From Phoronis australis (taxonomy: Eukaryota > Animalia > Phoronida): a stretch of DNA of 64,000 bases. Positions 1,099 to 61,867 of this stretch are shown piece after piece. Below the pieces are notes generated by a model. That model was not told where the DNA came from. It ran no database searches and saw only the letters and a program-made list of their open reading frames with translations. Location: contig NMRA01000288.1 of NCBI GenBank assembly GCA_002633005.1, positions 74,300-138,299 on the forward strand, in the 5' to 3' direction. Made by a program: the position numbers and the translations under genes. The first letter of the stretch is position 1, and the number at the start of each line of letters is the position of its first letter.

Positions 1099-1179
1099 GG
1101 GAAAAACCAATGACAGAGATAAATATTGAAAGCTTATTGGGAAAAACCCACGAGTTCTTACGTAATGAAATTGCGAAAT
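1099..1179 (+). promoter_or_regulatory. Candidate Rel/NF-kB + C/EBP motif cluster upstream of the IL-1-like gene
   Basis: GGGAAAAACC at 1099-1108 and 1139-1148, TTACGTAAT at 1158-1166, TTGCGAAAT at 1171-1179; possible splice donors follow at ~1203 and ~1214. Confidence 0.3.
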
Positions 1180-3234
1180 CAAGAAAAGCAAGTGATTGAG
1201 GTGTAAGCTATAGGTATGTTACAACATTTTTTCATGGTTTTGAAATGTGTTTGAAAATGTGTCCTATGCGATAACGCGTAGCATATGATATGGCCAAGAC
1301 AGCCTAAACTTAAATACGTAACTGACGTCTAAGCGTGCTTCCGGTGAATCATCAAGCACGCTTGACAGTTTTATCGCGGTCGCAGGTTCGATTCTTGGGT
1401 AAGGTAGTCGGCAAACGGATGATTTACCGATGAAGCACTCAGACTCAGTGCCAACTATTACAGTCATAGACAGGACCCGATGACTTGGAGTGGCTGCGAT
1501 GGTAAAAGTTCCAGGAGTCCAGGACTTGTGTGGCTGCGTGACACAACCTTGTGTTAAGGGCACATAAGTTACGTGTCTATTACAGTTCAAGAATGGGTTC
1601 AGACCAATGAACAATGTATCAGAGGTACGAGGGATCATTTCTCCCACGAGACATTGCCTTTATTGATATATTGGATGGAACTGCAATGGTGGAGTTGCCC
1701 AATCTCCGAGTGGTGAGGGTGTCAACGCAAGATTCTTTGTGTGTGTTAAATTTGAATATAGACCGTGATTTATGTGTTCCATCCCAAAAGCCTAATTGTC
1801 AGGGTTGAGGCCCTTAAGCAGCTTCAATACCTGTAGAGTCTTAGCAGTGAGGAGGAGATAAGTATTTGACATGTTGGGAAATGGGCATGCAAAACCTCAC
1901 AGACTCACGGTGTTGCTGAATTAATCTTTGTTGATTTATCACAATAGCCCTGTGAAACCTAAGGGGAAGCAACCCTTCATGGAAAGTTTGGGAAGAAGGT
2001 GCTTACAACAATTGTTCAAAGTTGCTTTATTTCTTTTTCAGTTTATGAGAGATTAATGGTCACGCGACTAAAATGAGTTGTTTCGTATTCGTGAACGTTG
2101 TGTTTGGTAAACTTCTAAAGATCTGGAGAGGTAATTAAGTGCACACTGTGATTTTGTTATTGAACATTTCATCAAAGTACATGTGACTGCCCTGTATGAC
2201 AGCTAATTGAGAAGGAATGAATCAATGTTTCTAAAATAATCTTGGGGAGAGTTTTTTAAGAGAATGGTCTCACAGATTAACTGCTTGCATAATTATGTTG
2301 AGCTTAATCTGTTTACTTCTGACTTGGAAATCTTTTGTTGGAATAATACATCGAAACATCATTCATTCATAATGCAAGTCATTGTTGCTTTTGTTTGCAG
2401 CTTTTTACTGGTCAACTGGCGGAAGTATGATAAGAGTTGAGTTTTTACTCATGGCAATAGATTTGACATTTCGGACTGATATAATTTCAAAAATTCCAAG
2501 TGATAACCTAAATATTTGTATAGCGCTTTAACACTTTAAAAATCTGTTGTTACAACTTACATTCCATCATAGATTATAGACAACAGATTCGCAACTCCTA
2601 CATTTTCTTGCGTAATATCCTATAGGAGGCGCCACTCTCCTAAATTATCTGTTTCAGTTTCCGGTTAGTGTATTGTGACAACACAACAGCCAACCATGAT
2701 TAGCAGACAACGTACTTGTCAGAAGTTACACCAGATAATTTGGTCAAGTGTCGCTAGTGAATAACGACGTCATTGCTTCTGTAAGAGCACAGGTTTCGTC
2801 CATTGAAAGTATACAGAGTTGGCGGTCCATTGTCAAAAGTCTATGATTCCATTCTACCATTTACTAAAATAGATGAGACGTAGTTTGTAGGCTTGGAAAA
2901 AAATGACATTCTTTGTTAGCGAGCATGTTCAGCGCAGTCAATGTGCTACAAGCCAACTAGTTCAGTTTTACGCAATGGTAAAATGTTCACTCTCATATAT
3001 CTCTGATTTGAATAGGAACAAATTGAGAGCTGTTTCATCACTGTGAATGGTCTGAATAAAAAAAGTTTTGACAAAGTTTCTAGTAGCAGTAAAGAATGTG
3101 GCTGTTTATTTTAGAAACCTTTGATACAGTTTGAGTTCAGTCCCCTGTGTAATCAGATTGGATACATTTTGAAGTTGAGGCTTGAAATTCACTAACCACT
3201 TCTGATTCAGTGTTTATATTTTTCGCTTTTTTAG

Positions 3235-3487
3235 AATACCAAAGACGCTGGCTACCAGAGAAGAGCCGTGTCATGAGATTGTCTTGCCGTTGTCAAATGT
3301 TCAATTTAGCCGACAACAATGAAAGGGCAGAAACTGGGACAATCAGGACAAAACTTCTTCATAAGAACAGCGAGAAATTGTATGGTAGTCTGCGACTATC
3401 CTCACAGACACAGACCAATAGAATTACTCATACGTTGACTGGTATAACAAATGCTGGAAACCCGGAACAGGAGGATTTCGTTTTTCG
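3235..3487 (+). CDS. IL-1-like gene exon A (N-terminus, first half of PDZ-like domain)
   Basis: Acceptor tttttag|AA at 3235; in-frame ATGs at 3273 and 3297; donor CG|gtatgt (phase 2) joins exon B as CGT. Confidence 0.7.
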
Positions 3488-6400
3488 GTATGTTAATATG
3501 TAGAAAACGTAATATGACAAAGAAAAAACATAGGTGCGAACTAATTGCTGAATTGGGTGAGGGTGTTCAAACTTTCTATACACCCTCATATACATATCAT
3601 TATGTATTGTTCGGGAGCAGCCCATCATCAACACAAACTTGATTGGAGAACACAAATTAATGTACTTTTTGTTGGACAGCTTGGTGTACACTCTTTCATA
3701 CTCTCTGTACAATTTCCTGTCTTCCAGCACTGTGTAGATGAAAGCAAATTACAAATTAAGTCATTACAAACAAACAAGTTAATTAAAGTAATTGCCATAT
3801 TTCAAGAGTATATGTCTCGCACTTGGGCACTAAACTGAACGTGGTGAAAGCGAAAGAAACCAGTAAAATGCGGTAAAATCTCACCTTTGGACAAAAGTAA
3901 TTTAATGGCAAAATTGATCTTTTTTCATTATTATTTATAAAAGCTTCTAACATACAGTGACATAATAACTTTGGAGAGAGTGTGGTCTTTTAAACCAAAG
4001 AAGAAGAACATGCTTTCGAATGTCAACAATCAGAATCATTGTCTTAAGGTAGCTATATCAGACCTTTAAAATGTTATAGCATTTATGTGGTCCTGCTTAT
4101 CTTTTATTAAAAAATGAAATCATAATATTTCTCTTGTCGGCCATAGTGTGTCCTAAATTGGTGAGATTTTACCTGTTAACAGTGGCAGTAGTTTGGAGGG
4201 CATACTTTGTCTAGTAGAGAGTGTGGATGTTAGGAAGCCCACAAGCCTAATGAAATTGTGCCAGCTTATGGTATGAAATACAGGTTTTCACGACTGATCA
4301 ACAGAGGACTTCATAACGGAAATGGGTCATTTTCTATATATAGCTTTTTTGCACATCCTAGCTAGTGTCCATACTGTTTTTGATTCTGTTTTGTGGACTA
4401 CACCCCCCATTCAGTTTAACGTATTCTGCACTATATGGTGGCCATTTTATGACACCAATTAACATCTCTAGAAGCTTACCATTTGTGGTGCAGTCGTGGG
4501 TGCATTTCAGCACTAATTCGGTTTGCCCTTGATTGACTTCATGGTGGAGAAAACACACTAAACATCAAAATGGCCAATATTTAACCTTTAAATGTATTGG
4601 ATGTCACTTATGCACTCAGTATAAAATAGACAAGTAGATGGATCGTTGAATTTGGAGATGTTGTAATTAAATTTCGCAAGATCCTGTCCATGCAGCTATG
4701 AAATTAGGCGCCTCAACACTGCTCAGGTTTTCCACAGTTGCATGCAGCATTGTCCAGTGTGGAACCCATAGCTAGTTTCTTTCATTTTGAAGTTGTAAGA
4801 TTTTGGGCCCGAACATGCCGAGTACAACTTGAGCATGTCACGGTCATCTAAATGTTATTTTTGCCAACTGTTCTGCACGCCACCTGTTGGCCTCATAAAT
4901 ATGATTTTCCATTAAGGCCTCCATTCACCTTACAAAGGTTTTGCCAAAGATCTGTCTTTAAGGGTACGGTATTTCGGGCAAGTTGATTTCCAATGAGTAT
5001 CACTATAATCATCCTTTCATCTTGGTAATCAAATTGCCAGTGGGTTTCTGTATCCCTCCTCCATTTTAGTTAAACCCGTCACCAGAGTTGATTATTGACC
5101 ACTACTTGTGGCAGTTTATCTTGGGACACATGTTGGCTATATGAACATGCGTTTAATGGTTATTGAATAAAAATGGATCATCTTAAAACTGTCATTTTTG
5201 AATATTTTTAGTGATGATGATCTGCTAGAGTCCATTAATGATACCAACGTGTCTGTCTACTGCCATCAACTCGTTGCATCTATGCTTCAACATCAGAAGG
5301 AAGTATTTACATTAGTAAGTTGTGTGTTCATGTATTAAGAAATGGTCAGTTTATCGTAGCCGGGCCAATGACTGGAGGTGATGAAATATCGGAAATCGCC
5401 CTCTTTCCTGCTTGATGATGGGGACATTTTTGCTATTCAAGAAGGTGAATTCCCACAATCCACTGCGCAGACATTTTATTTCCTTCTTCCTGACTGGTTA
5501 GCCATATGAACAAATGTAGCACTTTAGCATCTAGATAGTTCTGACAATGTCAAGCTAATAATGTTAGCCAATCAGGTTGTGGGAGCAATGTGTAAACACA
5601 CCAAAATCTACCATTTTTCAATCAGTGGTTGTGAATTACGGAAAATGTTAAGAGGTTTTGCGGAGACTGAATGAAAAGTGCTGCTGATCAAAGCATATAG
5701 TAGACTCCATGATCAGAGGAATATAGTGTCGCCTAACTAGTATCAAGTGCAGCACTCGACGCTTAATTAGCTAAATGCCAAGTTGCATTCGGTGACAGGT
5801 CATTGGTGTAACATTAACCGAGATAGTGCCAGATATTTTTTCTGTCTTACGTGCATGCAAAGTTTCAATTTGCCGACAACATAACTATGTCAAGAAGGCA
5901 AATGTCTTCCTGGTTACATGTGTATGCACTTTCTAATAATTTAATTAATTTGTACTTTTGATGCATTTGATGAAATTTTCACTAAAAATGCCCTACAAGT
6001 GTCATTGTAAAGTTACTCACCAACTCAAGTTTACACCAAGAGCGTCGAGTGCAGGCGCAAAATAATTCACCCACAAAAAATGTTTCCCAGGAAAACACAC
6101 TTCTTTGTTCTGCGACTTCCACTGCATTGAAGAAGCTCACACATATTTTGTTTCAAGAATTTTTCTCTGTTCATGTCGAATACAATGAACTTTTTATCAT
6201 CAAAATGAAAATTTGAAAAAAAGAATTAAGAGTTCCATTTCAGGTGACCTGAGGTTGATGTCTGCACCCAAACAAAGCAAATGCTTGTCCAAGTACACAG
6301 AACCATCGAACAAAAGAAAGTAAAGAATCCTCCTTCAATTGCATTCATGCTATGTCTTGCGCGCTCATGCCGACTTGTTTCAATTTTGAACGTGCGCATT

Positions 6401-9400
6401 ATGAATATCAATGGATGCTATTAAAAATGATGCAAGTTTGATTTGATAGTATTCAGGTTACTGTACAGTAATTTATTAATATTTCAGACTGTCATACGAA
6501 ATGGAAGAAGACTGAAGCTGGAAGTTAAGCTCGGTAAGTAATGTTTTACACCCTTGTAGTACTAACAGTAATACACCAACTATAATGCAAAAATAAGTAA
6601 AATATATTTTCTGCATAGTCAGAATGTGCCAAATAAACCGAAACTGAATAATATACAGTTGACAGGTGTGCGAAATTAACTGAGAGACCAAGCATCGCCA
6701 ACTGCCTTTGTGTGTGAATGTAATGGAACCGACTTCGGGTTTTCAACATGATCCTGTTTAATAACAGTAATTAAGTTTACCATGCTGTTCTAACGTAAGA
6801 ATTCTTTATCCCATTAATAGTGAAACACTCTTTGGACTGTAATTTGATCATTTAAAGTGACACAAAATGCACCTGGTGACCTGTTTGACCTCATGTTTTA
6901 AAAAGTGTGAGACATCCCATATAAATTGACTCTCATGTTGACACGGAATGTAGCGCTACCACCACTGAGAATGTATACCATAAGAACTGCATGTCTTATG
7001 GATTATCCAAGTGAGGAATGTGTGGTGATTTTTTCGGGACAATTTTAAGGTCATCAAACCAGGTGATAGATAGTGGATGTCGTTACTTGTTATCAGAACA
7101 TAGTGTCATGTACAGGACTTGGAATTTTCCTCTTTTAAGAAGATTTTCTATTTTTTGGTTTCGATTTCCTCTTATTTGATTTCCACTTCCTCTTTTTTGT
7201 CATTATTTTGACTTTTTCATGCAAAAGCATTTATTTCAGTTAAATTTTACAACAAAAAATAATTCTATCACACTGCAAGCTTATTTATTTGTGGAACGAT
7301 ACATCACCTGGAAAATTTTCATCTTTTTTGTCATTGATCATTCCAAGCAATGCATGTAACCTCAGTATGGAAACAAACCCATGTCACATGGATGAATGTT
7401 TCCGTCGTATTGTGAACAGCTTTACACTGGAAACACAGTTTGCTAATTTCCCAACGATTACTCAAATCATGCATTTGCAAGGTGGGTACAATCCGAGACC
7501 ATTTATCAAATCAGCTTGGCTGGAAAACAATTGGGAAAGAAGCAGTAGATACATCACAATTCGCAATGTAGAAAGTTGTGTTTTTAGTCACGTTCATGGA
7601 CAGAAGTGTAAGTGAGATATGACTAAATGTGTTCTAGGAACTTACTAAATCCAACTGGATGGATGGTTAAGTGAGACGATGTGTGCTATCTGTTGCACAA
7701 AATGCCAAAATCTTCCGTTGCCATGGACCTCTGTAACCAGTCTCAACTGAGAAGGGTATAAGAATGTTCTCATGCTTTCTAAATCGCATTTTATTTTTTT
7801 GTGACATAGGTGCTACTTTATGGCTGTGTGGTTTTTGCTGCTTGTAGTAATTTCTGAAGAGATCGAATTTCATGCTTAGTTTAAGGACAGAGATGTTGTG
7901 TTTTATAGATAAAAGAAACGCATTGTACATCATAGTGCATGCCGGGGGTTGTGATGAAGTCGACGGGGGCTGTGGTGGAATAAACAGTATCAATGACATA
8001 GAAGATGTGCAATATGATAACCCAGAGTTCACCCATGTCATGAAGTGGTCTGAAGACAGAGTCCAAATGGCACCTAAGGCAGACACAATCGGGTCTAGTG
8101 GTGTGTGGTTTTGTATAGTTTCACTCAGCTTGTTTTCCAATTGAGTTTCATGTGTTCAGCTTGTATCAGGCAAACATTTTTATGCACCCAAATATTTACG
8201 TATTTGTGGGTGCATATTGCTGTCTGTGTCATGGCGTCCGGGCATCTGTTGTCCGGCGTTTGTAGTTGTATCTCCTAAACTCCTTGCACGATCTTGATGA
8301 AATTTGGTAGATGTGTTCCTATGAAAGTGAAGATGGATGACGACAAATGTCTGACCTCTCCGACTACCGGTGAACCCCCTTTAAGTGGCAATTTCAGTTT
8401 TGTATGATTACCTCTGTACCTTCAAAGGTCCTGAAAAAGATTTTTATAAAATTTTGAATATAGGCATCGATCTATTGGTGAAATGATGCTATCATCCTAA
8501 TTTTGGATGGAATCGAGGTATTTTGCACCACCTGGTGGGCATTTTTGGTGTTTTCAAATCTTGTGTTTAGCGTTCACCCTCGATCAACCAAATCATTTTA
8601 GGGATGGTTTTGAAAATTGGCGAATATGTTTTCAGTGTGAAGCGGACTTTTGATGATGGTGACTGAATACTTGTTTTGCACCCATAGCTGTATCTCCAAA
8701 ACCCACTGCAGGATCTTTATTAAAATTCAATAAGTGCATTTATATGAAGATCACAGACAACTTTCAGACGGATGGAACGGACGCTGTGCCCACAATTGTC
8801 AATTTCATTTTGTTCTGTTTTCCTTTTGTTTCTTGAAGTTCCTTGACAGATTTTTATGAAATATGGCATGTTCCCATTTTTAGATGGATTGTACGTTTTT
8901 GCGCCATCTAGTAGCCATTTTTATGATAAAAATAACCCTAAAAGCACACCATTTGCGATACATTCGTGGGCGCATTTCAACGCTTTGTGTTGTTCTTGTT
9001 ATATAATTAGGCAAGAGAATTTAATATGAAGTTGACAATTGACAACAACGGCATTTGGATGGAACCGACTATCGCTGTGCCACCCCTAGTGGCATTTTTT
9101 CCGTTGTCCTCTGTATCTTTTAAACTCAGTAGATATTAGTGGAATTTAATACATAAGTTTCCACTAAGGAGATGACAACGCCTTCTCATTATTGGGTGGA
9201 TTTGACGTACTCTGTGCCACTCTGTAGCCATTTTAACATTTCTTGAGTACGTTTGTGACATCACTCTCTTGATCCACTAAACTGCTTGATGGATCACTAC
9301 TAAAATTTGGAGATGTGTTCCTAATGAGAAGACCGAGGCTGACGTTGATTTTTTGACTTGTTTACCTACTCTGCCCCTGCAAGTGGCAATTTTATTTTTT

Positions 9401-12400
9401 GCGTCCACAGCTGTATCTTCTTCCTTTTTATGATCTTCCTAAAATTTAGCAGATGTCACTTGTGCTCCTATGGAGATGGCAACTGATAACCTCGAGTTTC
9501 AGACCAATCCAACTACAGCTATGCTCCCTAAATGAAATTTTATTTTTTACCTGATACTTGATGCTTTTTCATAAAATTCAGTAGGGCAAACAAATTTCTC
9601 TCATGAAGATGATAACATCTTTCCTTTTTGTTATATATCCAAGGTATTCTGCCCAGTTAGTGGTCATTTTAATTATTTTTTGGTCTGTTTTTTGTCATCT
9701 GCCTCTGTTTCTGCCAAACTAATCGGAGGATCATTATGAAAATTGGCAGAGATGTTCCTACTCACAAGAGCATGACTGACGTGAATATTCTAGCTGTTCC
9801 AAGTACTGTGGTGCCCCCTAGTGACATTTTACGCATCAAAGGCTGTATCTCCTAAGCCCAGTGCAAAGTGTTTTTGAGCAGTTGTATTCGTATTAACTTG
9901 ACATTTGATGAATGGATTCGACTAGTGCTGTGGTTCCTAATGGCAGATTTTTACGTTTGCCTTTGTATCTTTTGAGCTCTTTGTGGATTTTCATGAAATT
10001 TGGCAAATAATTTTTATGATACTATTAAATTCCTAGGAGCACACCATTTGCAGTGCATTCAATTTCATGGATGTATTTCAACACTCTGGGTTGCTCTTGT
10101 TTGCAGCTAGTATTTTATTGTGGCCATGATGATGTAGAATTTCATGGGGACTGAATACCCAGTTTCAACGTGCGCTTCTTGAATACATGAAGTATTTTTA
10201 CCGTGGTATCCATTTGTGAGGACTGAAATACTGAATAATATTTAATCTGCTTTTCCCTAACTAGGGCTAGTTGCATGGTTTGGCATATAAAGCGCTGTCG
10301 AGGTCATGTTAACCTTAAGACATCCCACTTGACACAAGTGCTAAATGCTTTAATATAATTTCCCCCATTGATAAAAAATCGAGTTGAAGACTTCTTGTTT
10401 TTTGTGGTTAATACTGGGGCCGGAATGAAGCACATAGGTGAATAGTTATGGCTTAATAAACCACTTCATTCCTATCTTACTTTGAAGTTGACCATTTTGA
10501 CTTGCCAAAGCAGCGTTTAGTAGCTTTAAAGATGATGATTGATTTAAATTGTTGTTCACTTTTGTTTCTTACAGAATTATTCGTTGTTGATCAGTATATG
10601 GGTCTGGATACTACAGATGGCTCAGATGTATTTATTTGTACTATTCGTGTGCATCACAAGTCTAAACGATCACGTAAGGATCGGTTTCTGATGTGTACCG
10701 ACAACAAAGAGGTGGTATTGACAGTGAGTAGTACTTGTAACATTTGACGTGAACTCAAAAACGTGTTAAAAATTATATCTAGACAATATCCAGAGAATGA
10801 TTGAGGGAGCTTGAGGCATCTTTAAACACAGCCATAAGACAGGGACGCACTGCCACCATTGAATTTTCATTATGTATTTGACTATGGTTACCATAGCGCT
10901 CCCTGTTGACCATTTCAGTTGTTGTCAAGATATTTCTTGTTGATCAACTTTTGGTAAAAAAACGGCAAATTTTGGTGAAAATTGACACAAGTTCATGATG
11001 GCGATGCACTGTCACTACAGTAAAATCTTTTGAACTTAGGGCACAATATGGTGGACGAGTGAAATTTTATTTTCTCATTTTTCATAAAAAAATATTGAGC
11101 ATAACACTGAAATCTTGGTTTATTTGACTCTGACTGTGTTATCCGGAACTCCTCGGGTATTTTGCAAACCTCAAATATCCCCTCGGAGGTGCAATTCTAT
11201 TTGCACATGTGCAAACTTTAGGAAATGTCTGAGGATGTTATTGCGTGAGATTTTAGTGCTCCCCAGAACTCGCAGCAGTAACAAGTTTGAATTCCACCTT
11301 CCCAAGTTTAACTTGTGTTGATTTTGGAAACTTACTACAAAGAGTCTGAAATGTTGGGAGGTCATTCACCAATATATCGGTTTACAAGCAAATTGAAACA
11401 TTTGACTTAAAAAGATGTTCATCGATTTTGTAATTCAAGTCTGAATTTATTGTGGAGAACGCTGGACTTTTAGACCTAATGGTGATGCCATGATTTTTGA
11501 CTTACCGTTTCTTGAACAAATGGTTTCACAGTTATCATTGAAGTGCACACACAAAGCATCTCTGATGGGAAAAAGAGTCCACAAAAATACCCGAGGTGTT
11601 CTGAATGCTGTTGTGGCTGACATCAATGGATGAGTGGCCGATTGGGTGACCTAAAAACCAACGTGCAACTTTAACGTCTGTCCAGTTACGTTATAGATAA
11701 GTGTTTCTCCATACTGTAGCAGCGGTTTATTATTGAGTCATGGTGCACTGACTGGTCACTTGGTTTACTATTATTTCAGAAAGCTAAATTCCACGAAGAT
11801 CATGTCAATCTGAAAAAGCAAAAATCCATGCTATTTCAACTGAGAAGTTGGAATTACGTAACCTTCTTTGAGTCGTTGTCTTATTTGGGTAAGTGATTGT
11901 GAAGGAAAACCTCGCAATTATTTTCTCAAATATGACTATCTTATTTAGTCTCAAAGTGTACGGAACGGTTCCGCAGTTTTTTAACATCCACTTAGAGCCA
12001 TAAAAAATGGTATGAAACAAATCTATACCTTACCCTAAACATGTTTACAATTTTATATTTTTATTTCCTGAATTAGCATTTTCTTAATTAGAAGTTCAAT
12101 TTTTGCCATGCAGAATATTCCGCAGATCATAGTTTTGCAGAATACTACGCAGATTTTGTGGAATATTACGCACTTGCAGAATACTGTGCAAGTTTTGTGG
12201 AATACTGTGACTTGCAAAATTTTATGCATATTTTGTGGAATAATAAACAAAATAATAATTTATTTTTAAAAATCAGTGTGACAGTTCCAGAAGGCTTCCA
12301 AAAAAATAAAAGTTTAGCACAGGTCTAAAATTTTTAATTTTCTCCCAGCCCAATAAACATGAATTCCATTCCATTCTCAATAGCACTTGAGAGTATAATG

Positions 12401-13209
12401 TGTCCACTCTCAATAATTAATCAATCTGACGGTTGCAGAATGGTTTCATACAAGGAACGGTTCCGCGAACAGAATAGTTTTTTGGAGCACTCAATTGAAC
12501 TTCTAATTAAGAAAATGCTAATTGAGGAAATAAAAATGTAACATTGTTAGGGTAAGGTATAGATTTGTTTCATACCATTTTTTATGGCCCTAAGTGGATA
12601 TTAAGAAAGTGCAGAACCGTTCCGCACACTTTGAGACTAAATGAGATAGTCTCATTTGAGAAAAAATGGCCTTAGTGAAATGTTATTCAGTGTTTGGTAT
12701 TTCCTGCCTCAAGTCATGAAAATCACATACAATCCTCAAAATATGTTATGTATTTCAAACACAACAGCTAAAGTAACTGGCAATGCATTTGATAGGTAGT
12801 GTTCTTGACATCATTACAGACATGACGAACTCTTCTGTAGGGCTGCAGACCAGTACTCTGAGAATTTCGGTATCTGTAATGAGTCATACGGCCCCTAGCT
12901 AGTATCATGTAACGTGCTTTTGCCACTTAAATCAACTCTTTAAAGTTGTAGCCAGGTAATTTTCACATGATGAAGTTGCTTATAATTAATCGGAAGTGTC
13001 AGTTTCCTTGAATTTGTGCATTGGCCCGCTCTAATATTGGTATTATATCAAATTAATGTTTTATGGCAGGTTACTTTCTTTCTCACGAGGATGATCAAGT
13101 GTGCTTGAAATATGTTGGCACTCACAGGTCATGTGAGGAACTAGAGGAGATTCCAGACATACAGTTTGGTGTGCAATGGATAGACACCTTGAGGACACAG
13201 CTGTCCTAA
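3273..13209 (+). CDS. Spliced gene: PDZ-like domain + IL-1/IL-18-like beta-trefoil cytokine precursor (~317 aa; 5' start uncertain)
   Basis: Exons 3273(acceptor 3235)-3487, 5212-5314, 6488-6533, 7909-8100, 10575-10723, 11780-11888, 13070-13209 sum to 954 nt, in frame, all GT-AG. Product: MRLSCRCQMFNLADNNERAETGTIRTKLLHKNSEKLYGSLRLSSQTQTNRITHTLTGITNAGNPEQEDFVFRDDDLLESINDTNVSVYCHQLVASMLQHQKEVFTLTVIRNGRRLKLEVKLDKRNALYIIVHAGGCDEVDGGCGGINSINDIEDVQYDNPEFTHVMKWSEDRVQMAPKADTIGSSELFVVDQYMGLDTTDGSDVFICTIRVHHKSKRSRKDRFLMCTDNKEVVLTKAKFHEDHVNLKKQKSMLFQLRSWNYVTFFESLSYLGYFLSHEDDQVCLKYVGTHRSCEELEEIPDIQFGVQWIDTLRTQLS*. FESLSYLGYFLS matches the IL-1 family signature (human IL-18 FESSSYEGYFLA). Confidence 0.8.
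5212..5314 (+). CDS. IL-1-like gene exon B (PDZ core: DDLLESINDTNV...HQLVASML)
   Basis: tttttag|T GAT...TTA|gtaagt; the peptide fits the PDZ GD-x-I-x-x-I-N-G...H-x-x-V-x-x-L pattern. Confidence 0.8.
6488..6533 (+). CDS. IL-1-like gene exon C (TVIRNGRRLKLEVKL, PDZ last strand)
   Basis: atttcag|ACT...CTC G|gtaagt; 46 nt, phase 0-1, fits both neighbours. Confidence 0.8.
7909..8100 (+). CDS. IL-1-like gene exon D (linker with DEVD/G, start of trefoil)
   Basis: ttttatag|AT...AGT G|gtgtgt; phase 1-1; overlaps ORF 7872-8144. Confidence 0.75.
8177..10101 (+). mobile_element. Helentron-associated (HINE/DINE-like) non-autonomous element with degenerate ~140-160 bp tandem array
   Basis: 5' tttttATGCACCCA...TGGGTGCATat hairpin, short GTCC-like tract, ~11 degenerate units (aaatttgg..atgtgttcctat..ga.gatga...ccctagtggc..ttt..tgtatct), and a 3' end motif (catttcaac.ct.tg.gttg.tcttgtt) present twice, at ~8975-9000 and ~10075-10101. 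Confidence 0.55.
10575..10723 (+). CDS. IL-1-like gene exon E (ELFVVDQY...ICTIRV...FLMCTDNKEVVLT)
   Basis: tttcttacag|AA...ACA|gtgagt; phase 1-0, like the central trefoil exon of IL1B/IL18. Confidence 0.85.
11780..11888 (+). CDS. IL-1-like gene exon F (KSMLFQLRSWNYVTFFESLSYL)
   Basis: ttatttcag|AAA...TTG G|gtaagt; carries the FES motif; absent from the ORF track. Confidence 0.85.
11920..12667. mobile_element. MITE/foldback element with ~180-bp terminal inverted repeats
   Basis: 11920-12101 is an imperfect reverse complement of 12493-12667 (e.g. aaatggtatgaaacaaatctataccttaccctaa / ttagggtaaggtatagatttgtttcataccattt); short internal tandem repeats at 12109-12243. Confidence 0.8.
13070..13209 (+). 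CDS. IL-1-like gene exon G, terminal (GYFLSHEDDQVCL...DIQFGVQWIDTLRTQLS*)
   Basis: ttttatggcag|GT TAC TTT CTT...TCC TAA; completes the YLG/YFLS signature across the intron. Confidence 0.85.
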
Positions 13210-16200
13210 GTACTGTTGTTGTTGTTCCGGTTAGACCTTGGAAATGTCCAGGAATTTGGTATCTCTCGGGACAAGGTGGTTGGAATTTTAACTTGATCTA
13301 AACAACTTTTAAAAACGAAATTTCTATACAGTGCTTGAAAATCACCAATTTCATATCAAAAAAAACAACCTCACCTGTGTCAGCTGTCAAATTAGAACAC
13401 CCACAAACACTATCTGACGATATGTTAATTAGATGATCTCCAATTACGAGCATTTATTGGTCGATACATGCCACTAACCGGGTCAACCAGTCACAGCACT
13501 GGTCGTCCTCTGTTGTTTTTAGTGTGAAAAGTCGTCAAATGTTGCTGCTCGTTTCCTGTTTTTTATGGTATAATGACAATTTTCCGGTGGTTGTGGCAAC
13601 TTAGTATTTGGCCACGCTGTGACTTCTTTCACTTTTCTGCGGCACATTAGAGAAGCATGGATATGGTACATGTTTGTGCAAGAAACTCGCGTGTTGGTGG
13701 ACATGACATAGTGACAGTGGGTACATGTACATTCATGCGTCCCTCTCATGTCCACGGACCTAAGAAACTTTCAGTCGATGTCACTTTTGTATTTTCTCTT
13801 TACTGGGATATTGAATTGGTGATTGTGAGGTGCAGTGCTAGAAAGGAAACATTAGTGATGCGGACAGCGAAGTCACTTGTCAAAACAAGGTAAATGGTGG
13901 TTTTAAGCGCATCATTATGAAGTCAAAAAAATAAAGATAGGTTCTGCACAATGGATTTTCACCGTGAAGACATGGAACATTATTGTATCAGATACAACAT
14001 GCATGAAGTTTAGATAATTGTCCTGTAGTACTCATATCATCCGCAATAACGTGCTTATGTTTTGTTGTGCAAATTTTATTGCTGTGTTGTAACTGCCTAC
14101 TGCTTTTTGTGAATTGCTGTTGCACTGATTTATTGTGCAACGTGTGTTAGTCCTGCCAGTTGTGAAATCATGGTTCAAAGAATCATGACATTTAGCAAAG
14201 GTGTTTCTGCAGATGGAAAGCGAGTTGACATTGTTTTATTTAGACAGTTTCAAGTGCTACATTAACTCTGCATGCCCCTAGTGGCAGTTTTAGTTTTTGC
14301 TTTTTCCTCAGTATCAACCAAGTTTACATATTAAATGTGACATGCTCAGTGGATTACATGGTCATTGTGCTATTTTGTTAGTTTTGAAGTTATAGTTCGT
14401 GTAAGGTGATTTTATGATGTTGTCAGTCTGGTCATTATTTTGTTACTGTAGCCATGTACTATTAAACGAGCAACATTGTTATAATATGGTTCTTCCTATT
14501 GTTTTGTTATAGACAAGCAACTGCTCACAAGTAGGAGCAAAGGATGCAGGTATTAAGAAATCTGTATTGATTGAATATTGAGCAGTTTGTTAGTGACCTT
14601 CGTTGCTCGTGGGAAATATCACTCATGTATAGCCTTTGACTGGCATATGTAGTTGTCTCCATGTGCAATGTGTAGTTCTGAGCCTGTAGAAATGTGCTCT
14701 GCTTTGTAGTATAATTTAAATTGTATTTTATGAACCTTGATAAGATATGATAATTGTCTGATATTTTATAGTCTGGACAAAAGCTAAATTTGCTTTTTCA
14801 AACTTTCTGTTTATACCTGCTTGTTAGATCTGCCTTTTAGATATGTTAAATACATGTACTTTTGTGCAACATATCTTTGTTTCGTTTGATTCCACACAAC
14901 CACTAACTAATTACTACACATTTTATGCCCCCCATATTATGTGCCCCCATTGGAAACCCCTTTTATCCTCTCGACGAGTCACAGTAGACTGGTCTATTGA
15001 CATTATCGTAGTGAGCAACATTAGCGCACTAACCACAACCTGAGCAGCTGATCGGCTGCTGGGACAGTAAAAAATGAGTAGTTTTCCCAAGGAACGTCAC
15101 CAATTAGAAAAACCGCCAACGTTAGGCATCATTGTCGATTGATAATGGAATTACTAAGCAAAACAATCGTGTTGCGTAAAGCACCCTTCGAACCGAACAG
15201 TGGCGTAGATCTCGGATAGAGCGCTACCGATTTAATCACGACCCACGACGAATCAATTTTCGTTGCACCCATGTAAAATGCCACACAACAGCTACGTTTC
15301 GTACTAAATCTGACAACGGCAAACTTACCGAGCTCTGTAGTCAAAAACTATTTTTCACGTAAGATATCTTGATTATCCACTAACAATATCCCCGACAATA
15401 CATCACCGCGGCACTAGTCGGGGTACCATTTTATAAGATCGTGACTCAGAAATGTCGTTAATTGACGGTGTGCGTGAATGTACGTCTCGTTTTTATCGCA
15501 AAAACATACGTGAAGATGACAACCCTTGAAATCAAATAGATGTTGCAATGCCGTGCAGTTACCGAAGAAATAAATATAAAAAAGTAAAACTAGTAAAACT
15601 AAAATGACTAGCGTCGGTACTAAAATATATTAAAATATCGTATCGAGCGATGCGCTCTTTCTCAAGGGTGTGTTACAGACTGCTGAATACATTTGGATAT
15701 TTCTAAAAACAAATGGCACAGGGGCAGGCCCGTAGGAAGGAAAAAATTATTGGGGGGAGGCACAAACCAATTTGACTTCGCCAACCTACCCCCTTGCTAT
15801 CGTTAGCCCCCCCCCCGGGATGTCACCGTATTTGTACTGAGCCACACCCCCCACGCCCGCTTGTGAAGGTGGAGTAATTCCGGGGGATGCAGCGATCAGG
15901 ATTTGAGTAACCGTGAACCAACAAACCTACAAATATTCACGAAGAGTAAGAATGCGTCTAGGTCCCGAGCGCACTGACGGGTGACCTGGTGGCCTCCTGA
16001 AGTAACTATAGCTGGGTCGAAGGTCAAGGTTCCTTTTATTTTCGGGAAAACTTCATTTTGTTATGGGGATTGTTTGAAGTATTTTTTGGAAAGCTGAGGT
16101 CCCGAGGTGCTTGGTATGAGTGCCTTTGTGGCCGTTTCAGAATCCCTTGATCACAGCCGGTAGTCCAGTTTCTGGTTGCTGGGTAAAATGATACTGAGCT

Positions 16201-19823: not shown

Positions 19824-22800
19824 ATGGCATTAGGAATTATCTGCCTATTCATTCTGATGAGAATTCACCAATCTCATGAACGTAAGTATCAGAATCAATA
19901 ATTTCTCGTAATTTATTTCTATTTTCCTGAAAACCGGCCGCACATTGCAGACATGAAAGAGCACGACTGTTTAATATATATTTGTGGCATTAAAGCAAAC
20001 GTTTATATACATGTAGGTGGGCAAAACATTGCACTTTTTGCCATTTTTTATTTTTCATTAGTGATAATCATTAACTATGCGTATTAGCGATGTAGGCAAC
20101 AGGTAGCAAGCAATGCTCGGAAATTTCTACATGTAGATGTCACTCCACATGTCAGGGCTGACGTATTACTTACAATACATGTATAATACTTGCATTTGCA
20201 TTCGTACTTACACAGTATAAATATGTACAATTATTACAAAAACGTAAATTAATCCCAATGGCCAATAACTTGTACTTAACAGTAAACGCTTAATATACTG
20301 TAGCGTCAAACACTAATCGTAGTCGGAACCACTCAATTTGAGAATTTGTTGCACCGGGGCTTGTGATAGACAGAGTAAATGAAAAAAGCAATATTCTGAT
20401 GCATATCTCCGAATTTCACGGCTAACTCAGAAAAGGTTTGAAGAGTGAGAACCCTTGGTTTTGTACTAGATATAGCCAAATATTCTTGTGAGTTATCATA
20501 AAATACCACTAAGTGTATTTTCTCATATTTCTTTGTAAAAATAATGCAAATAACACCGGAACTTAAAGAAAAACTTAAAACTTTGAATGCTATTTATAGC
20601 CGTGCATTATGAATTGAAAACAATGGGAGTTTGTGGAGTTTGAAAATTATTTTAAGCATAAACCGAAATTTTAAAGCGCTATTCGCCCGTTTGCACAGCC
20701 ATAAACTCTGAGGGGGGGGGGGNACAATGAATTTTTGGCCGTAAAACAGCCTCCCGTTCAGTAACGCTAGGACCTCGCTAAAAAGCAAGACTTCGCGAGA
20801 TTACGTGAGATATTGCCGTGCATTTTACTTGAGAGCACGTGAATTTGACTAGGTTTTAGCTAGGTCCTAGCGTAGGTCCTAGCGTCTACTGAACGCACGC
20901 CAGATAATGTCCCTTAACTTAAAACCTTTTTGAGGTGGAGATATAGTAACTTTGTTTTTGTAAAATCTCGTGTCTATTTACCCCCAGCGTCTAGCTTCTT
21001 TACATTGGCATGAGGCTTCAGCCATCTCCTGATGCTATTAAAGATTCTTGACTGTAAAATAATAGAGGCTAAAAATTATGTTATTTAGTTTTGTGCCTTT
21101 GAAAATGACATTAAAAGTTCCATATTTGCAGTTAATATTGCAACTAAGGCACATCACCTAGTATTCTCGTGGAAAACTTTCAGGATTTCGATATTTCATC
21201 CGCATTGCTCTTGCTCAGAAGTTTATTCTTTTGAAGTAGTTTTAAATTACAATTTTAATTTTCGTTATTTAATGACGTTGCCTACATGTAGGTCACAGTT
21301 AGCGCGGGAACAATACAAAAAGTGTCATTATCAAACTCGCTGCGAATGAGTGGACCGGGTACGCTGAACGGGCCTCAAAATCGTGGGATCCTCGTTACTG
21401 CCACGCAAGAGATCATTGTTTACGGTTCAAACAAAGAAAAGTACAGTTGTGATGCATTTCTGGCCCTTCCTACGGACGTGCTAGGCAAGGATTATTTCAT
21501 ACCGTCGTGGCCAAAGGAGGCTTCGTACCAGGAGCCTTCGCAGTTAGGTGAGAGATCAAGTGCTAAACTGAAATGGTAAAAAGAACCCATGCATTGTCGT
21601 CTGTAATAATGTGTTCTAGGTCATGCTTCGGGGTGGAACTTTTTAGATGGTTTTAATAGCTGGGTCTCTAATTTTACGCGATATACCGAGTGGATCCGTG
21701 GAGTTCATCGAATGTTTGATTAGTTACGCCAGAGTTGGTTTACTAGATTTATGTATTGATGGTGAGTGTGGGGCTGATAATGGTGACCCTAATGGTGTAC
21801 CCCAGAGGTCGATAACGGGCCATTGTTATTTTGTGTGTAGGTAAATGAGTAGAATTAGTTTGTATGCGGATAACACAGCCCTCTTCTTTGCTGCCAAGTC
21901 AATAGATGAAGTCAGTGTCAGTTAGCAGAAGAAATGAAGTGCGTTATGACATTTAATGTTAAAAAAGCAAAGTTATGGCTATTGGTAGCAGACAGAGACT
22001 GGCTGTGTTGTCTCCAAGCAACATTGCCATTACTGTCAACGTCACCCAGCTGGCAAACACTGAGAAATATAAATATCTGGGTGTTATGATTGATAAAAAT
22101 TTATCGTGGGACGAGCATGTTGATTATGTGTGTAAAAATGTTTCTCAGCAGATTTGGCTTTTGTGCCGAGTCAAGAGCTATGTTGATTAATCTTCCCCTA
22201 GACTCTGTACAAGAGTCTAATTGTACCACACTTTGATTACTGGGATTTTGTCTGGGGTAATTGTGCGTCATGATTCAATGAAAGACTTCAAAATTAGAAA
22301 ACAGAGCTGGGAGGCCTCAACTATAGTAGCCTTTATAGTGATTTTCCAATTACTGATCTTCTCGATACTGATCTTCTCGCTGGTGCAGCCTGGTTAACAG
22401 GCGTGCCTTTAATCCCAATCTTATGTGTACAAAGCAATTATCTCCGACTGGGCCCACTTGAAAATCAGTGTATTCACTGAAGTAGTCACCCAGTCATTTT
22501 GAAGACGTTTGAATAAATAAACAGTTGAATAAATAACTAAATAAATAGGTGAGTGCGGAGGTAGTGGTGGAAGTTGGGACGAAAATGAAGAAATGATGAT
22601 GTGCTCATTGTGATGATCGATGGTGAGGGCTTAAGACTGTGGTCATGGTAATTTTAATGGCGATGCCTATGGTAGTGATGGTGATCAACATTGTCACCAT
22701 GCAGCGTCATCGTCATCATCGTTTTCACTATTATGATGATCATGATGATGACGACGACGATGATGAAGATGATGATGATCGCCATCATCATCATCATCAT

Positions 22801-25800
22801 TAACATCATGGCCACTATGATCATTCCGCTGATTGTAAATTTAAGGTGTGGTTGGAGTGCAAAACGGAACAGCTGTGACTTTTACGTTTCCATCGCACCT
22901 CAGCGAGTTTAAAGTGGCTACCGGTTCAAATAACGGAGGTAGTTACTCTTACACTAAGTACAACGCTGGGTCAACTTTCAGTATAACGCTTAACAGAGGA
23001 CAAACGTACCAGGTGAGTCAACTGGGTTATTTACAGAAAGTTTTAGGAGGAAACGCAAAAAGATGAACACGTGATCAGAGGACAGACAAGTTTCTGAATT
23101 TTAAGTGACATTCATGGAAAATGACTTCTTTGTAATTCCTTTAAGTACAGTGGGTTACCCCGTTTAAAAGAAACTTTCGCTAATGTCAGGGCTTAAAACG
23201 ACTCACTAGCCTACTGGGTGCCATTTTTGAAATCTCAATTATAGTAGTTGAAATTTCAGCATGCTAAAATCTAGTGTCATTACAGGCCATTACAGTTTCC
23301 CTATGCGAATTAAGATGCATGCGCATTTATTCTAAACACTTAAGTAAAGCCAAAGAGCATGTGGAAATTGCGTGACTCGAGTAATATGCCTGAGTGTGCA
23401 TTTACCTACTTCACAATTAAAGCTCTCGAATGAACATGGGAACGCACAACCAGTCGGCAGTAAACTGCTGTAATTCGAGATTTAATGCAAGATTTCTGTT
23501 ATTTTTTGCAGCTCCAATCCGAGCAAGACCTGACTTCCACGCGTATCCAATCCGACAAACCAGTCGCCGTCATGTCAGGCAGTTTGCGAACTTCCATTGC
23601 CGTAACTGGAAGCTCAGATCACATCGAAGAAATGATTCCACCGACGTCTTCCTGGGGCAAATATTTTATAACATCACCTTTCGCTGAAAGAACTGCCGGT
23701 GACATATTTCGAATTTTAGGTATGACATTGTGGCAGTGCTTTAAGGTCATGCAGTACATTGCGTATTTAAACACATATCTAGATTTTAACTGAGTAAAAG
23801 CATTACTTTCTGAAAGTAGAAAGCCTGGCGAGTTTGATTTGTGACGGTTTACCAATCTGTCCTTAATTGAGTCACGAGATATTTAGCGACAAAAGCTACA
23901 GTGATTATAAAACAATGGTACCAGTAACATAAACAGTTTTCGGTGCAAATATTCAAGATGACACCTGAAAAATACTATTAGAATTTTCTAAAATATCATA
24001 TGCTTTTCCTTTATGCAACTTTAGATTTTTTTATGAAAATCATAAAATCATAGTTTTTAGTATCCCTTCATGCAAAGGTGGAATTCTTTAGAAACAAGTC
24101 CCAACTGCATAAAACATACCCTGCAAGTTTCATACGGCCCCGATACGTCATTTCTGAGAACTGATGTTCCTAGGTTAAACGAGCTTGGACATTTGTCTGG
24201 GGACCTACATAACCTTAAGTACGTTGATACGCTGGTGTTTCAGAGAGATTGTTTGCAAGGAGGCAGTACAGACGGTTTGTAAACCTAGGGGTGCCTTCAA
24301 ATCGATTAGAGGTTATTATTATCCTGTATGGTTTACGATATGGATTAAAATCAGTAAAACATTTTTACAGCAAAGATTTTCAAGTTTAATTAATTTCACA
24401 TGCTAAAAGAAAGCTGTCGGGGTGTAAGTGAGTTTCATTCTAAAAATGCTTTGATCTGTTTTGTGCAATAGTGCGTAATATAGAAAATGTTATTGGCGAA
24501 AATGAAGCAATCGAGAAAGTCGAGTGTCGTGACCACGTATCACCGTAACACTCAAATTTCACACAACAAAATGGCCGCCCAGCAATACCAATGCAAAGTC
24601 ACGTGGTAACCAATATGTCTATCTCCACGTGACAGATGATAGGCACTCCTGAAGGGGCGAGGGAAGTGCCACTTTACAGATGACCAGAATAGCTTTGTGA
24701 CAATGTAGACAACAGTCTCAAGAATTAAACTAAGCCAACCTGGACCTAAAGCGTCCATGTTCGACGATGGGGAAATGAGATCTCTAAAACATAAAACCAC
24801 GTGGTTTCAAAAAAAGAAACCATATGATCAAGTCACTGGCACCTGGATTGATGACCCAGTGGCGGATTTAGAGGGGGGGCATGCTCCCCCCCTAAAGCTC
24901 TTCAACATTCCATTTGGCAGATCGGGGTGCGAATGTCTGACGGGCAAAACCCTGGCCATGGCCCCCCATAAATAAAAATCTTGAATCTGCCCCTGTGACC
25001 GTACCCTGACAAGAATCCTTAGGCTTATAGTGACAAGGCACTTGCACCTAAAAGTAGTACTATGACGTGATGCTCCTTTCTCGTGATGAGAAACTTGCAC
25101 TGTGCAAGATGGTGCCGCGAAAACTTTACCACGCAGATGTATGCTTACTATAAAGAACCGTGTATATTTTCGGATCATATGTGAAAATAAATGCTTATCA
25201 TAGTATCGTGTTGAATATTTTAACAAAATGTTATCAAATGACAACCATACACAAAACGAGCAGTTATTGACAGCGACACCTGCTGACAATTTCGACGACA
25301 AAGAAGTTTTAGGTTGAAAGCTTAGAAAATTTCAAAGCGAATTTCGTTGTTCGCTCATTTCATTCTACAGTTGAAAACGTGGATTCGGGGCCGGGGTCGT
25401 GAAGTTATTTTGAGTATTTTCACTCTACTTTGTGCAAAGTCAGGATACATTTCCGGTGCTCGAGTAAGTTATGGTTCGTCTATCACTGCAGAATAGAGGT
25501 TACAAAATTATCAGTGGTTTCCAGCGCATACAAACTCATGGTGGTTGTACATGAGTGAAGCGTGTGTTCTGTCTGATTTGCAGTTTCCGTCGACAACACT
25601 GAGGTTCAACTAACGTCAACGTTGGACAATACCACTACGAAGGAGACGCTGAGCGTGGGAAGGTTTAAAGAACTAGATGTATCCTCCAATGAATTCTACT
25701 ACATATCAGCTTCAGAGCAAATAATGGTTGTACAATATTCCAAAACAAGTAAGAGTACAGGAGTTTTAAAACAGGATAAAAAACAATTTATTTCAATTAA

Positions 25801-26652
25801 TGCTGAACGAACCTATCTTACTGAGTTCTATTACCGACTTGTTGAGTTTAAAACTATATTTAGTTAGGACGGTAGTAAACAGTTAGTTAATTTTTTTATT
25901 ACAGGTGATGCAGACGGCAAAGAGAGTGATCCCTTCATGACTCTCAATGTACCCATAGAACAGTTCTCTAAAGACTACACTTTCGCAACACCGGAGGCCG
26001 TTCAAGAGCCGTATCAAAACTACGTCGCCATCACATGCAAAACTACCGAATGTAACCGTCTCTATTTAGACGGTAGTTCCATATCACAAGCAACGTTTTC
26101 GAAAACGTGGACGTCGATTCATGGGCCCCAAACACCCATGTCGGTTTGCATAGTTAAAATTAGTCACGGAACCCATACCTTAAGCCACCCCGACCCAACA
26201 GTAGCCTTTGGTATTCAAATTTATGGCCAGGTTAAGTTCGAATCATACGGCTTCCCAGGGGGTACGTTGATAGCTCCACTGTACGGTGCCTGCGTTCCGA
26301 CTAGCGTTGTGGTGAATGACGGATTTGACAACGACTGTGACGGTAGAATAGACGAGGAACTCGCAGACGGTCTGGACAACGATGGCGACGGAAATGTAGA
26401 TGAAGACACGGCGCAGCAGACAAATCCGCTATTTACGTCACCAACTACGACTTCAACAACTACAACAACAACAGTAGCACCAACAACATCAACTTCAACA
26501 ACAACAGAGTCTCCACTAACGACAACTACTACAGAAGCTCCAATGACAACAATAACAACAGGAGCTACAACAACAACATCCAAAACAACGGAGGCTCCAG
26601 TGACAACTACATCTACAAAGGGTGAAACAATGAGAACAACCACAGAGGCTCC

Positions 26653-26687
<35 letters not shown>

Positions 26688-28192
26688 CCGCAGAAGCTAA
26701 AATAACAACTGAAGCTCCAACAATAAGGATAATTTCAGAAGCTCCAACATTACCACTGCCAACAACAACAACAAACACTCTGAAAAGCGCAACTACAGAC
26801 CAGACCAATCCTGATGGGGTAAAGAATCAGAATAGCGGGGCAGATGGTGAACTGCCAGTGGACATTATTTTAGCAACTGTGATTCCAGGTGTTGTCGTGT
26901 TATTGACCACCACTATCTGCTGCTGCTGCTTGCTTGCAGCAATTAGAAGAAGAAGGAAAGAAAAGAAGAAGAAGAAACCACCTGAAGACGACGGGGAAGA
27001 AGAAGAACTTGATAAAAAGAACAATAAAACACAGAATGTGACTGTGAAGACAATCCCGAGCAAAGCCAAGAGCACCAAATCGCCTGTGGTCCCGATTAAT
27101 TTGGCTGCCAGTGGAGACGCTGACAAAGACGACTGGATATATTCTCGATCCGCTACGTCAAGTCCACGTACTGAAGTTTCGGAGTTAACTCCTCCCGGAT
27201 CGCCACTGTCATTGAATAACGTTGACACCTCCCTTCCGATCACAGAGTCAGACACCCATTCTACTCAACACCTGGAAATTGGTCGTTCTTCTGGAACAAA
27301 GGATTTCAGTAACCACAATAGGTTGATTTCTAACAGGATTTATGAAAGAAACTCACCAAGAAATGATCAAAACAGCCAATACAGAAACTATGGTTCGCCA
27401 CAACGACATGCCAATTATGATGATGAACGACGTGCGAGTCCCGCAATCAAAAATCACAGGCGTTCTAGTCCGCCACCACGTTCGCGATCTCCGGTGTATC
27501 CCTACCGTAAAGCACCTAGTATTTCCATGGATCCGCGCGGTAACAATCGTGATCTTGCGTACAAATCGAGGCAACCTGACGCTAGGCATCCCTCTCCACG
27601 TGGCATCAGATATGATACGCATAGAGAAAGGTCAACTCCCATCCCCCGGTCGCCACGCGGTGATGTTGACAGCCGTGGTTTTACGTACGACTCTAGGCAT
27701 ACGTCACTTCGAGAAAGGCAAACCTCTATCCGAAGATCGCCAAAAGCCTCAATGGATCCACGCGCTGATTTTGACCACCGTGACTTTGCCTTTACTACTA
27801 CACACCCGTCGCCAAGCTCTCATAACAGTGACACACGCAAAGAGAAAATGACGTATGCTGATGGTGGAAACTATTCTAACCACAGTGCGGCGCAATCCAC
27901 TGCCAGGTCAAAAGGTTACTCCACTTCGTCTCACGCTTCCTTCTACAATGTAAAACACTTAACGTATAAAACCACCGATCCACAAGCGAATAGCCAAAAG
28001 TTTAGCCTATCATATAAGACATCTGGTGGAACACTTAGTCATAAACCAGACTGGTCAGTGAATGGAATAAGTAATAACCAAAAGGACATGGACGAGTGGT
28101 GGAATGCCACAGGGGCTCGCGCGCAAGTTGCGACTGCACGCCGTGAACCGCTCAAAAAACCTGCACGGTCAGACTACTTGAATGGATTTTAA
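19824..28192 (+). CDS. FCGBP-N (IgGFc-binding-like) domain membrane mucin, paralog 1 (exon 2 not present in assembly)
   Basis: Exons 19824-19881 (signal peptide MALGIICLFILMRIHQSHE), 21292-21547, 22846-23012, 23512-23719, 25584-25748, 25905-28192. Motifs SCDAFLALPTDVLGKDY, LNRGQTYQ, SDKPVAVMSG, DHIEEMIPPTSSWGK, DPFMTLNVPIEQF and ESYGFPGG are typical of the FCGBP N-terminal domain; then a Thr-rich stalk, TM at ~26864-26944 and a 415-aa tail. Confidence 0.85.
21610..22547 (+). mobile_element. Decayed non-LTR retrotransposon (CR1/L2-like) RT 3' fragment
   Basis: GVPQRSITG, LYADNTALF, KYKYLGVMIDKNLSWDEHVDYVCK with stops/frameshifts; ends in an (AATA)n-like tail at 22511-22547; lies in the intron after exon 3 of paralog 1. 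Confidence 0.8.
22590..22825. repeat. (GAT)n/(CAT)n-rich low-complexity tract before exon 4 of paralog 1
   Basis: Direct observation; ORF 22691-22912 (poly-M/I) is a by-product. Confidence 0.8.
23810..24090 (+). repeat. Dispersed repeat also at ~28340-28580 and ~40945-41245
   Basis: Shared blocks such as agaaagcctg..a.tttgatttgtgac, aaacaatggta.ca.taacataa and tatgcaacttta. Confidence 0.6.
24857..24995. mobile_element. Small non-autonomous DNA transposon (MITE), 5-bp TSD
   Basis: Imperfect TIRs CAGTGGCGGATTTA / TGAATCTGCCCCTG flanked by direct repeat TGACC. Confidence 0.7.
25905..28192 (+). CDS. Paralog 1 terminal exon (end of FCGBP-N, DxDxDG repeats, mucin stalk, TM, Arg/Ser-rich tail)
   Basis: ORF 25937-28192 extended to the acceptor ttattacag|GT at 25905. 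Confidence 0.9.

Positions 28193-39143: not shown

Positions 39144-39190
<47 letters not shown>

Positions 39191-44228: not shown

Positions 44229-44280
<52 letters not shown>

Positions 44281-61833: not shown

Positions 61834-61867
<34 letters not shown>

Follow-up and report, generated by a model that had tools for sequence, protein, structure and literature searches.

The 64-kb window analyzed here is a stretch of 64,000 nucleotides from Phoronis australis (contig NMRA01000288.1, positions 74,300 to 138,299 of the forward strand), and all positions given below refer to it. Near its beginning lies a + strand gene that encodes in one transcript a likely PDZ part followed by a predicted interleukin-1 (IL-1)-like part, and that is very probably a member of the published IL-1anc family. 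Proteins of this family consist of a PDZ domain at the N terminus and an IL-1 trefoil at the C terminus and have no signal peptide (Fontenla-Iglesias et al., Nat Ecol Evol 2026, PMC13736523; preprint PMC12338702). The seven coding exons, designated A to G, form a single open frame of 317 amino acids (aa) that starts at the ATG at 3273, and their introns are of the GT-AG type with phases 2,0,1,1,0,1. Exon A (3235-3487) contains this ATG and the predicted PDZ strands betaA-betaC (residues 20-60). Strand betaD, helix alphaB with His90 (5264-5266) and the start of the last PDZ strand are encoded by exon B (5212-5314), the remainder of that strand and the next one by exon C (6488-6533). The linker and the predicted trefoil strands 1-3 follow in exon D (7909-8100), strands 4-7 in exon E (10575-10723), strands 8-9 with an FES motif at 11867-11875 in exon F (11780-11888), and strands 10-12 with the stop codon in the coding part of exon G (13070-13209). 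The stop codon varies between TAA and TGA alleles, so that a stop is kept. The 3′ untranslated region probably extends to about 14400; sense reads and contigs reach about 14650. The peptide string of exons A-C that a preliminary description of this DNA had given was recovered on the + strand at the noted places between 3273 and 6533 with GT-AG exon ends, the motifs of exon A being located at 3342 (IRTKLLHK), 3375 (KLYGSLRLSS), 3429 (HTLTGI) and 3456 (GNPEQEDF).

Splicing was followed in three runs of stranded RNA from a single study (X2, X3 and X4), about 18-19% of each run being read. The same species label is attached to a contig set in which part of the gene's 3′ region is present. Reads spanning the A-B joint numbered 3, 1 and 4 in X2, X3 and X4 (8 in total), those spanning the B-C joint 1, 0 and 6 (7 in total) and those spanning the C-D joint 0, 0 and 7, all in an orientation that fits RNA of the + strand. 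The D-E joint was present in a single contig of a further run, X1, whose status as RNA is a guess. Among the matches listed, which cover 15 of 122 joints, none spanned E-F or F-G, and we infer these two joints from the splice signals, the reading frame and the sense-strand reads that cover exons E and G. The C-D reads and the D-E contig thus place exons A-C in one transcript with the downstream exons as far as exon E at least, in agreement with the preliminary description, and the C-D reads rule out that exons A-C form a transcript of their own. As regards expression, the RNA documents basal transcription of the gene.

The start of the gene had to be corrected, because the RNA revealed exons upstream of the ATG at 3273 from which the preliminary description began. 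The segment 1168-1213 is the 3′ end of a first exon, and 1555-1624 that of an alternative first exon, both on the + strand and both with a putative start further 5′; they are joined to exon 2 (2042-2130, + strand) by 3/2/3 reads in X2/X3/X4 (joint 1213>2042) and 0/2/5 reads (joint 1624>2042), respectively. Exon 2 is joined to exon A by 1/3/6 reads (joint 2130>3235). Besides two short upstream open reading frames (ORFs), it carries an in-frame ATG at 2073, which adds 32 residues and gives a 349-aa form, so that the protein comprises 317 or 349 aa and in either form less than 500. The longer form begins with a hydrophobic, Cys-bearing stretch (residues 1-15) followed by basic residues, with a mean hydropathy of 2.1 in a 12-residue window and of 1.25 in the best 19-residue window. 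The start of the 317-aa form is not hydrophobic. Within the region 2042-2130, the ATG at 2073, which opens the frame continuing through 2073-3299, overlaps the stop codon of a short upstream ORF. A minor joint into exon A (2780>3235) was represented by three reads. The introns B-C and C-D (5064-6757) showed a low depth of sense-strand reads, which points to precursor RNA in which splicing was incomplete or had not begun.

The PDZ domain was examined with two profile hidden Markov models (HMMs). A small HMM of seven E. coli PDZ domains matched residues 74-124 with a score equalled by 1 of 2000 whole shuffles. A deeper HMM built from 71 bacterial domains, namely these seven and 64 non-redundant ones out of 172 cut from 120 proteins, matched residues 73-124 with 10.4 bits, a score reached by none of 2000 whole and none of 2000 N-terminal shuffles. 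The PDZ profile match that the preliminary description had called for was thus obtained. The score depended on the joining of exons B and C, as exon B alone gave 0.3 bits, exon C alone 4.2 bits and both together 11.9 bits, and of the 56 open stretches starting after an AG that could be joined to exon B, exon C ranked first (next best 3.2 bits). In the ESM Atlas, the top matches of exon B were PDZ clusters with a score of 0.83, which has the value of a lead; its ten best family matches all belonged to one clan, as was also the case for a third of the shuffles. In a single-sequence fold prediction, exon A formed strands at residues 20-29, 36-47 and 50-60 in the order betaA-betaC and no alphaA (mean predicted local distance difference test score, pLDDT, 60). 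In the HMM alignment, the helix opens with His90 at position alphaB1. Exon B was, by eye, very similar to the bivalve and brachiopod IL-1anc rows of the published sequence table, including the alphaB His and the preceding strand.

Canonical class I PDZ domains carry a carboxylate-binding loop of the GLGF-type consensus. In the protein described here, neither YGSL nor LYGS has the corresponding hydrophobic-Gly-hydrophobic pattern, and comparison of the sequence by eye with the bivalve IL-1anc rows places a predicted divergent loop at YGSL (residues 37-40, 3381-3392, + strand), a register that appears to fit better than LYGS. We take this domain to be a PDZ domain that is real but degenerate. 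The preliminary description was right in placing a PDZ domain with a conserved alphaB His and a divergent loop before the IL-1-like region, and its loop register LYGS gives way to YGSL. Two extra strands are predicted after the last PDZ strand (6488-6533 and 7909-7940), as in other IL-1anc rows. The PDZ domain of nNOS has a beta-finger extension that binds other PDZ domains, and the extra strands here recall it by analogy.

The C-terminal 177 residues are predicted from sequence to form an IL-1-type beta-trefoil. The FES motif (residues 265-267) is followed by a G-Y-F-L pattern and falls by eye on strand 9; a relaxed form of this signature, chosen post hoc, occurred in 5 of 200000 shuffles. 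Exon E was folded from its single sequence into strands at residues 188-197, 204-213 and 221-227 (mean pLDDT 78), and the order of motifs from strand 4 to strand 12 is by eye that of the fish IL-1anc rows. The introns C-D, D-E and E-F have phases 1,1,0, and one further phase-1 intron follows after FES. In IL-1beta genes, the last three introns are described to have the phases 1,1,0. According to PMC13736523, an IL-1 trefoil spans 3-5 exons. The trefoil here spans four exons, and its central intron phases match those of IL-1beta.

The order PDZ plus IL-1 is not new, as it defines the published IL-1anc/nIL-1F family. According to PMC13736523, IL-1anc occurs in cnidarians, crustaceans, a brachiopod, bivalves, ambulacrarians, amphioxus, cyclostomes and fish, amniotes having lost it, and the PDZ domain of lumpfish nIL-1F had been noted in 2020 (PMC7144542). 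The preliminary description had regarded the PDZ domain as standing in place of the IL-1 propeptide; since PMC13736523 proposes that the PDZ domain is ancestral in IL-1anc and was then lost in amniotes, this order is likely the reverse of what happened. Further sources used were PMC4880838, PMC8473687, PMC8750818 and PMC10155998. The gene itself was not found in Table S2 of PMC13736523 with three motifs as queries (zero matches; two of the motifs are N-terminal and cells were searchable to 400 characters). Capitella is mentioned as screened and has no row in this table. The nearest IL-1anc proteins by eye are MtroIL-1.1/1.2 and PmaxIL-1.2/1.3 from bivalves and LanaIL-1.2 from a brachiopod. These share with the Phoronis protein the N-terminal PDZ domain with its alphaB His, the degenerate alphaA and loop, the strand extension, the C-terminal FES region, a size of 300-350 aa and two introns within the PDZ domain. 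They differ in that the Phoronis gene has a DEVD/G motif between the extension and the trefoil, a second DxxD/G motif inside the trefoil (the slash marks the predicted cleavage point) and an additional phase-1 intron after FES. Fish nIL-1F (il1fma, PMC7144542) likewise combines a PDZ and an IL-1 domain in ~350 aa; it is a vertebrate protein with a suggested antagonist function and has a longer, Cys-rich linker and, by eye, no DEVD/G directly before the trefoil. In Table S2, the three amphioxus IL-1anc rows and several of those from starfish begin with Gly2 and a nearby Cys, a start that resembles a myristoyl/palmitoyl anchor; neither myristoyl nor palmitoyl gave a match in the main text of PMC13736523.

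The DEVD/G motif is a predicted executioner-caspase site, DEVD140/G141 (7953-7967, + strand), which lies in exon D between the PDZ domain and the trefoil. The product of a cut at D140 was computed to have 177 aa and 20.6 kDa and to begin some residues ahead of the first predicted trefoil strand; 20.6 kDa is also the size given for FLAG-tagged mature human IL-1beta (PMC13736523). DEVDG occurred in 46 of 100000 shuffles, the motif having been noticed first and tested afterwards. The only IL-1anc protein for which PMC13736523 describes a mapped caspase cut is SpurIL-1.3, which has no PDZ domain and is cut at GCDEPD/G (DEPD184); most of the IL-1anc members tested showed no processing. The sequence GCDEVD/G found here is one residue off that site. 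Both proteins have the context GCDExD/G, and in both the trefoil, a predicted one here, would stay whole in the C-terminal product, whereas the PDZ domain is present only here, and in the PDZ-bearing Spur paralogues the motif lies upstream of the PDZ domain, so that a cut would not remove it. In Table S2, a DxxD-G motif recurs near the PDZ domain in many invertebrate IL-1anc rows (no systematic count). In the acorn worm, crinoid and sea cucumber rows it directly follows the PDZ domain, in those of sea urchins it lies upstream.

A second predicted caspase site, DTTD200/G201 (10607-10621, + strand), is located in exon E, on a loop that connects two predicted strands, by eye beta4-beta5. At least two DxxDG motifs were present in 407 of 100000 shuffles. 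Mammalian IL-33, which has no PDZ domain and carries a nuclear N-terminal domain instead, loses its activity when caspase-3/7 cuts at D178 in the beta4-beta5 loop, and reviews call this loop site IL-33-specific; the DTTD/G predicted here is alike in sequence type and predicted position. Among the fish rows scored by eye in Table S2, 5 of 12 ray-finned fishes (sturgeon, gar, bowfin, arowana and tarpon) have a D-x-V-D-G motif at the loop of strands 4-5; it is absent in the other 7 and in 5 of 5 cartilaginous fishes. In searches of open-access text, no published mention of two DxxD/G sites of this kind was found, and the main text of PMC13736523 gave no match for DEVD or caspase-3, its review file a single one of no relevance here.

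We consider it reasonably probable that the gene encodes an IL-1anc pro-cytokine that loses its PDZ half through a caspase cut at DEVD140/G141, and we lean, with somewhat less confidence, towards a predicted cut at D140 that is activating. Transcription would be induced by NF-kappaB, and the precursor would have no signal peptide and stay in the cytosol. An enzyme of the caspase-3/7 type may then cut at D140, whereby the PDZ half would be lost and the 177-aa cytokine domain freed. This domain could leave the cell through gasdermin pores or by lysis and bind an IL-1R-like receptor. Coral and amphioxus GSDME are reported to be cut by caspase-3, and maturation would in this way be coupled to release. 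The PDZ domain most likely acts as a pro-domain, that is, as a protein-interaction module through which the precursor would, before it is cut, be kept inactive or bound in a complex in the cytosol, and not as a membrane address. Near the first exon there are two candidate sites with the identical 10-mer GGGAAAAACC at 1099-1108 and 1139-1148 (+ strand), which we take to be kappaB-like. The 10-mer has two matches in the 64 kb, where 0.13 would be expected; two were present in 1 of 100 shuffles, the motif having been picked after it was seen.

The preliminary description had also likened the protein to pro-IL-16. Both are PDZ-containing precursors, caspase-3 processing being only predicted here. 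The released C-terminal IL-16 peptide is itself PDZ-based and stems from a multi-PDZ precursor. In the Phoronis protein the HMM gave a single PDZ match (residues 73-124), with no further one towards the C terminus; pro-IL-16 has no beta-trefoil, and the two families are unrelated beyond the shared PDZ fold. Caspase-3 releases the mature C-terminal peptide of pro-IL-16, as described in a source on crab EsIL-16 (PMC8326423). The analogy is a loose one, as the PDZ domain would here be the discarded half; the hunch of caspase-3 cleavage that it contained fits the DEVD/G in exon D, which lies beyond the region considered at that time.

A number of observations weigh against the assignment to IL-1anc or against processing at D140. 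No profile aligned to the exon-A half of the PDZ domain, and single exons gave neither a PDZ match in Pfam nor a useful one to sequences in the PDB. The PDZ score is modest. The raw window contains 3379 open stretches, and one of them, on the + strand starting at 2739, scored 10.6 bits on the PDZ HMM; this stretch, 2739-2830, lies in a high-copy repeat, its score is probably due to chance, and the exon spliced from 2780 to exon A is probably minor and repeat-derived. The hydrophobic start of the 349-aa form might be a leader or an anchor. For the IL-1 trefoil, fold searches with exon fragments were uninformative and searches of Pfam and the PDB with single exons gave no IL1 match. Single-exon queries also found no relative in large protein sets, which fits the statement in PMC13736523 that sequence searches fail for IL-1anc. 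The codon differences listed between RNA and window, a small and non-random subset of seven non-synonymous, two synonymous and one stop-keeping change, give no sign of purifying selection; they spare H90, DEVDG, DTTDG and FES. SpurIL-1.1 and SpurIL-1.2 have the same GCDEPDG upstream of the PDZ domain, and no cut of them is reported in PMC13736523, so this motif is not sufficient for cutting; nor is any PDZ-bearing IL-1anc member described there as processed. Finally, ESD, GCC2, TRAF3, EIF2A or IL-1R were not recognised in the ~50 kb downstream of the gene (the window holds 1 kb upstream). According to PMC13736523, microsynteny with these genes exists in some clades only, and IL-1 genes also occur outside these loci.

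Other explanations differ in the role they give to the two halves of the protein. The preliminary description had proposed that, until cleavage, the PDZ domain keeps the precursor tethered by binding to a scaffold or to the C-terminal tails of membrane proteins, which we regard as unlikely. The alphaB His at residue 90 is kept, as in many IL-1anc rows, the cut site follows the PDZ domain so that cleavage would free the trefoil, and both the Gly2/Cys lipid-anchor-like starts of several IL-1anc rows and the hydrophobic, Cys-bearing start of the long form here would suit an attachment to membranes. The loop is degenerate (YGSL), however, alphaA is not predicted, and in truncation assays in heterologous 293T cells the PDZ domains of five IL-1anc proteins, taken by themselves, were found in the cytoplasm, from which the authors conclude that localisation is not set directly by the PDZ domain (PMC13736523). 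A membrane-tether role of the PDZ domain is thus unsupported. It is rather unlikely that the protein follows the alarmin logic of IL-33 and IL-1alpha, in which the full-length form would be active on lysis, apoptotic caspases would silence it at DTTD200/G201 and D140 would be incidental. The position of this site between two predicted strands, as that of IL-33 D178 in the beta4-beta5 loop, the low frequency of two DxxDG motifs in shuffles and the lack of processing of most tested IL-1anc proteins agree with such a logic. On the other hand, DEVD/G sits just where the mature end would be expected. It is also a better caspase-3 consensus than DTTD/G. The strand numbering was moreover done by eye, and the loop motif is missing from the majority of the fish rows, as given above.

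That the released trefoil is a receptor antagonist is improbable. Fish nIL-1F, a vertebrate member of the IL-1anc family, was suggested to antagonise IL-1beta, but IL-1anc genes are described as induced in phagocytes on infection, like IL-1beta (PMC13736523), and no second IL-1 copy that could serve as the agonist paralogue was seen in the 64-kb window. Least probable is that the C-terminal part is another beta-trefoil, for instance FGF-, fascin- or AbfB-like, or no trefoil at all, and that the PDZ domain was fused to it independently. FES-type motifs are shared by FGF-, fascin- and AbfB-like trefoils, and no exon gave a profile or structure match to IL-1. Against this very improbable case, the order of PDZ and FES-trefoil, the size, the intron phases 1,1,0 and the GCDExD/G context all match IL-1anc. 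The removal of the PDZ half of an IL-1anc pro-cytokine at D140 remains the reading that we prefer. In PMC13736523, the role of the PDZ domain and the processing of PDZ-bearing IL-1anc proteins are left open, and a textbook caspase-3 site exactly between the two domains makes the Phoronis protein a good substrate for testing the PDZ domain as a removable pro-domain.

The two predicted sites could also act one after the other as a two-step switch, in which DEVD140/G141 would free the cytokine, likely together with GSDME pores opened by caspase-3, and DTTD200/G201 would destroy it, the loop site, with its counterpart in the five ray-finned-fish rows named above, being ancestral to IL-1anc. We regard this as an unlikely proposal. 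If it were true, the apoptotic off-switch described as unique to IL-33 would predate vertebrates. In this reading the host may also represent a spiralian lineage for which no IL-1anc is listed. Should the beta4-beta5 site prove real and be common to this protein and fish IL-1anc, its description as IL-33-specific would need revising.

The neighbours of the gene are IgGFc-binding mucin-like genes, unlike the ESD, GCC2, TRAF3 or EIF2A found beside IL-1anc genes of some clades. Domain matches identified tandem paralogues with an IgGFc-binding domain (PF17517) on the + strand at 21292-28189, 33185-46000 and 54486-64000. They contain a short Asp-rich motif resembling a metal-binding one (PF11617, below the cut-off) and a Thr-rich mucin stalk, and their conserved part is 82-84% identical between the copies. 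The first two have a transmembrane helix and a Cys cluster, and the first in addition a long tail rich in Arg, Ser and Pro. The best matches of the IgGFc-binding neighbour were amphioxus, bivalve, annelid and bryozoan proteins with 45-47% identity. In a 25-row tree of 22 of 40 matches and the three window copies, the latter fell at an open fork together with proteins from bryozoans, annelids and Mytilus (support 84/94, long branches). Canonical PDZ-binding tails were looked for by inspection on the IL-1anc-type protein itself and on its first neighbour, and neither C-terminus fits. By their appearance, the frames at 41944-42922, 21963-22187, 15180-15359 and 34674-34910 are decayed remnants resembling the reverse transcriptase/endonuclease of retrotransposons.

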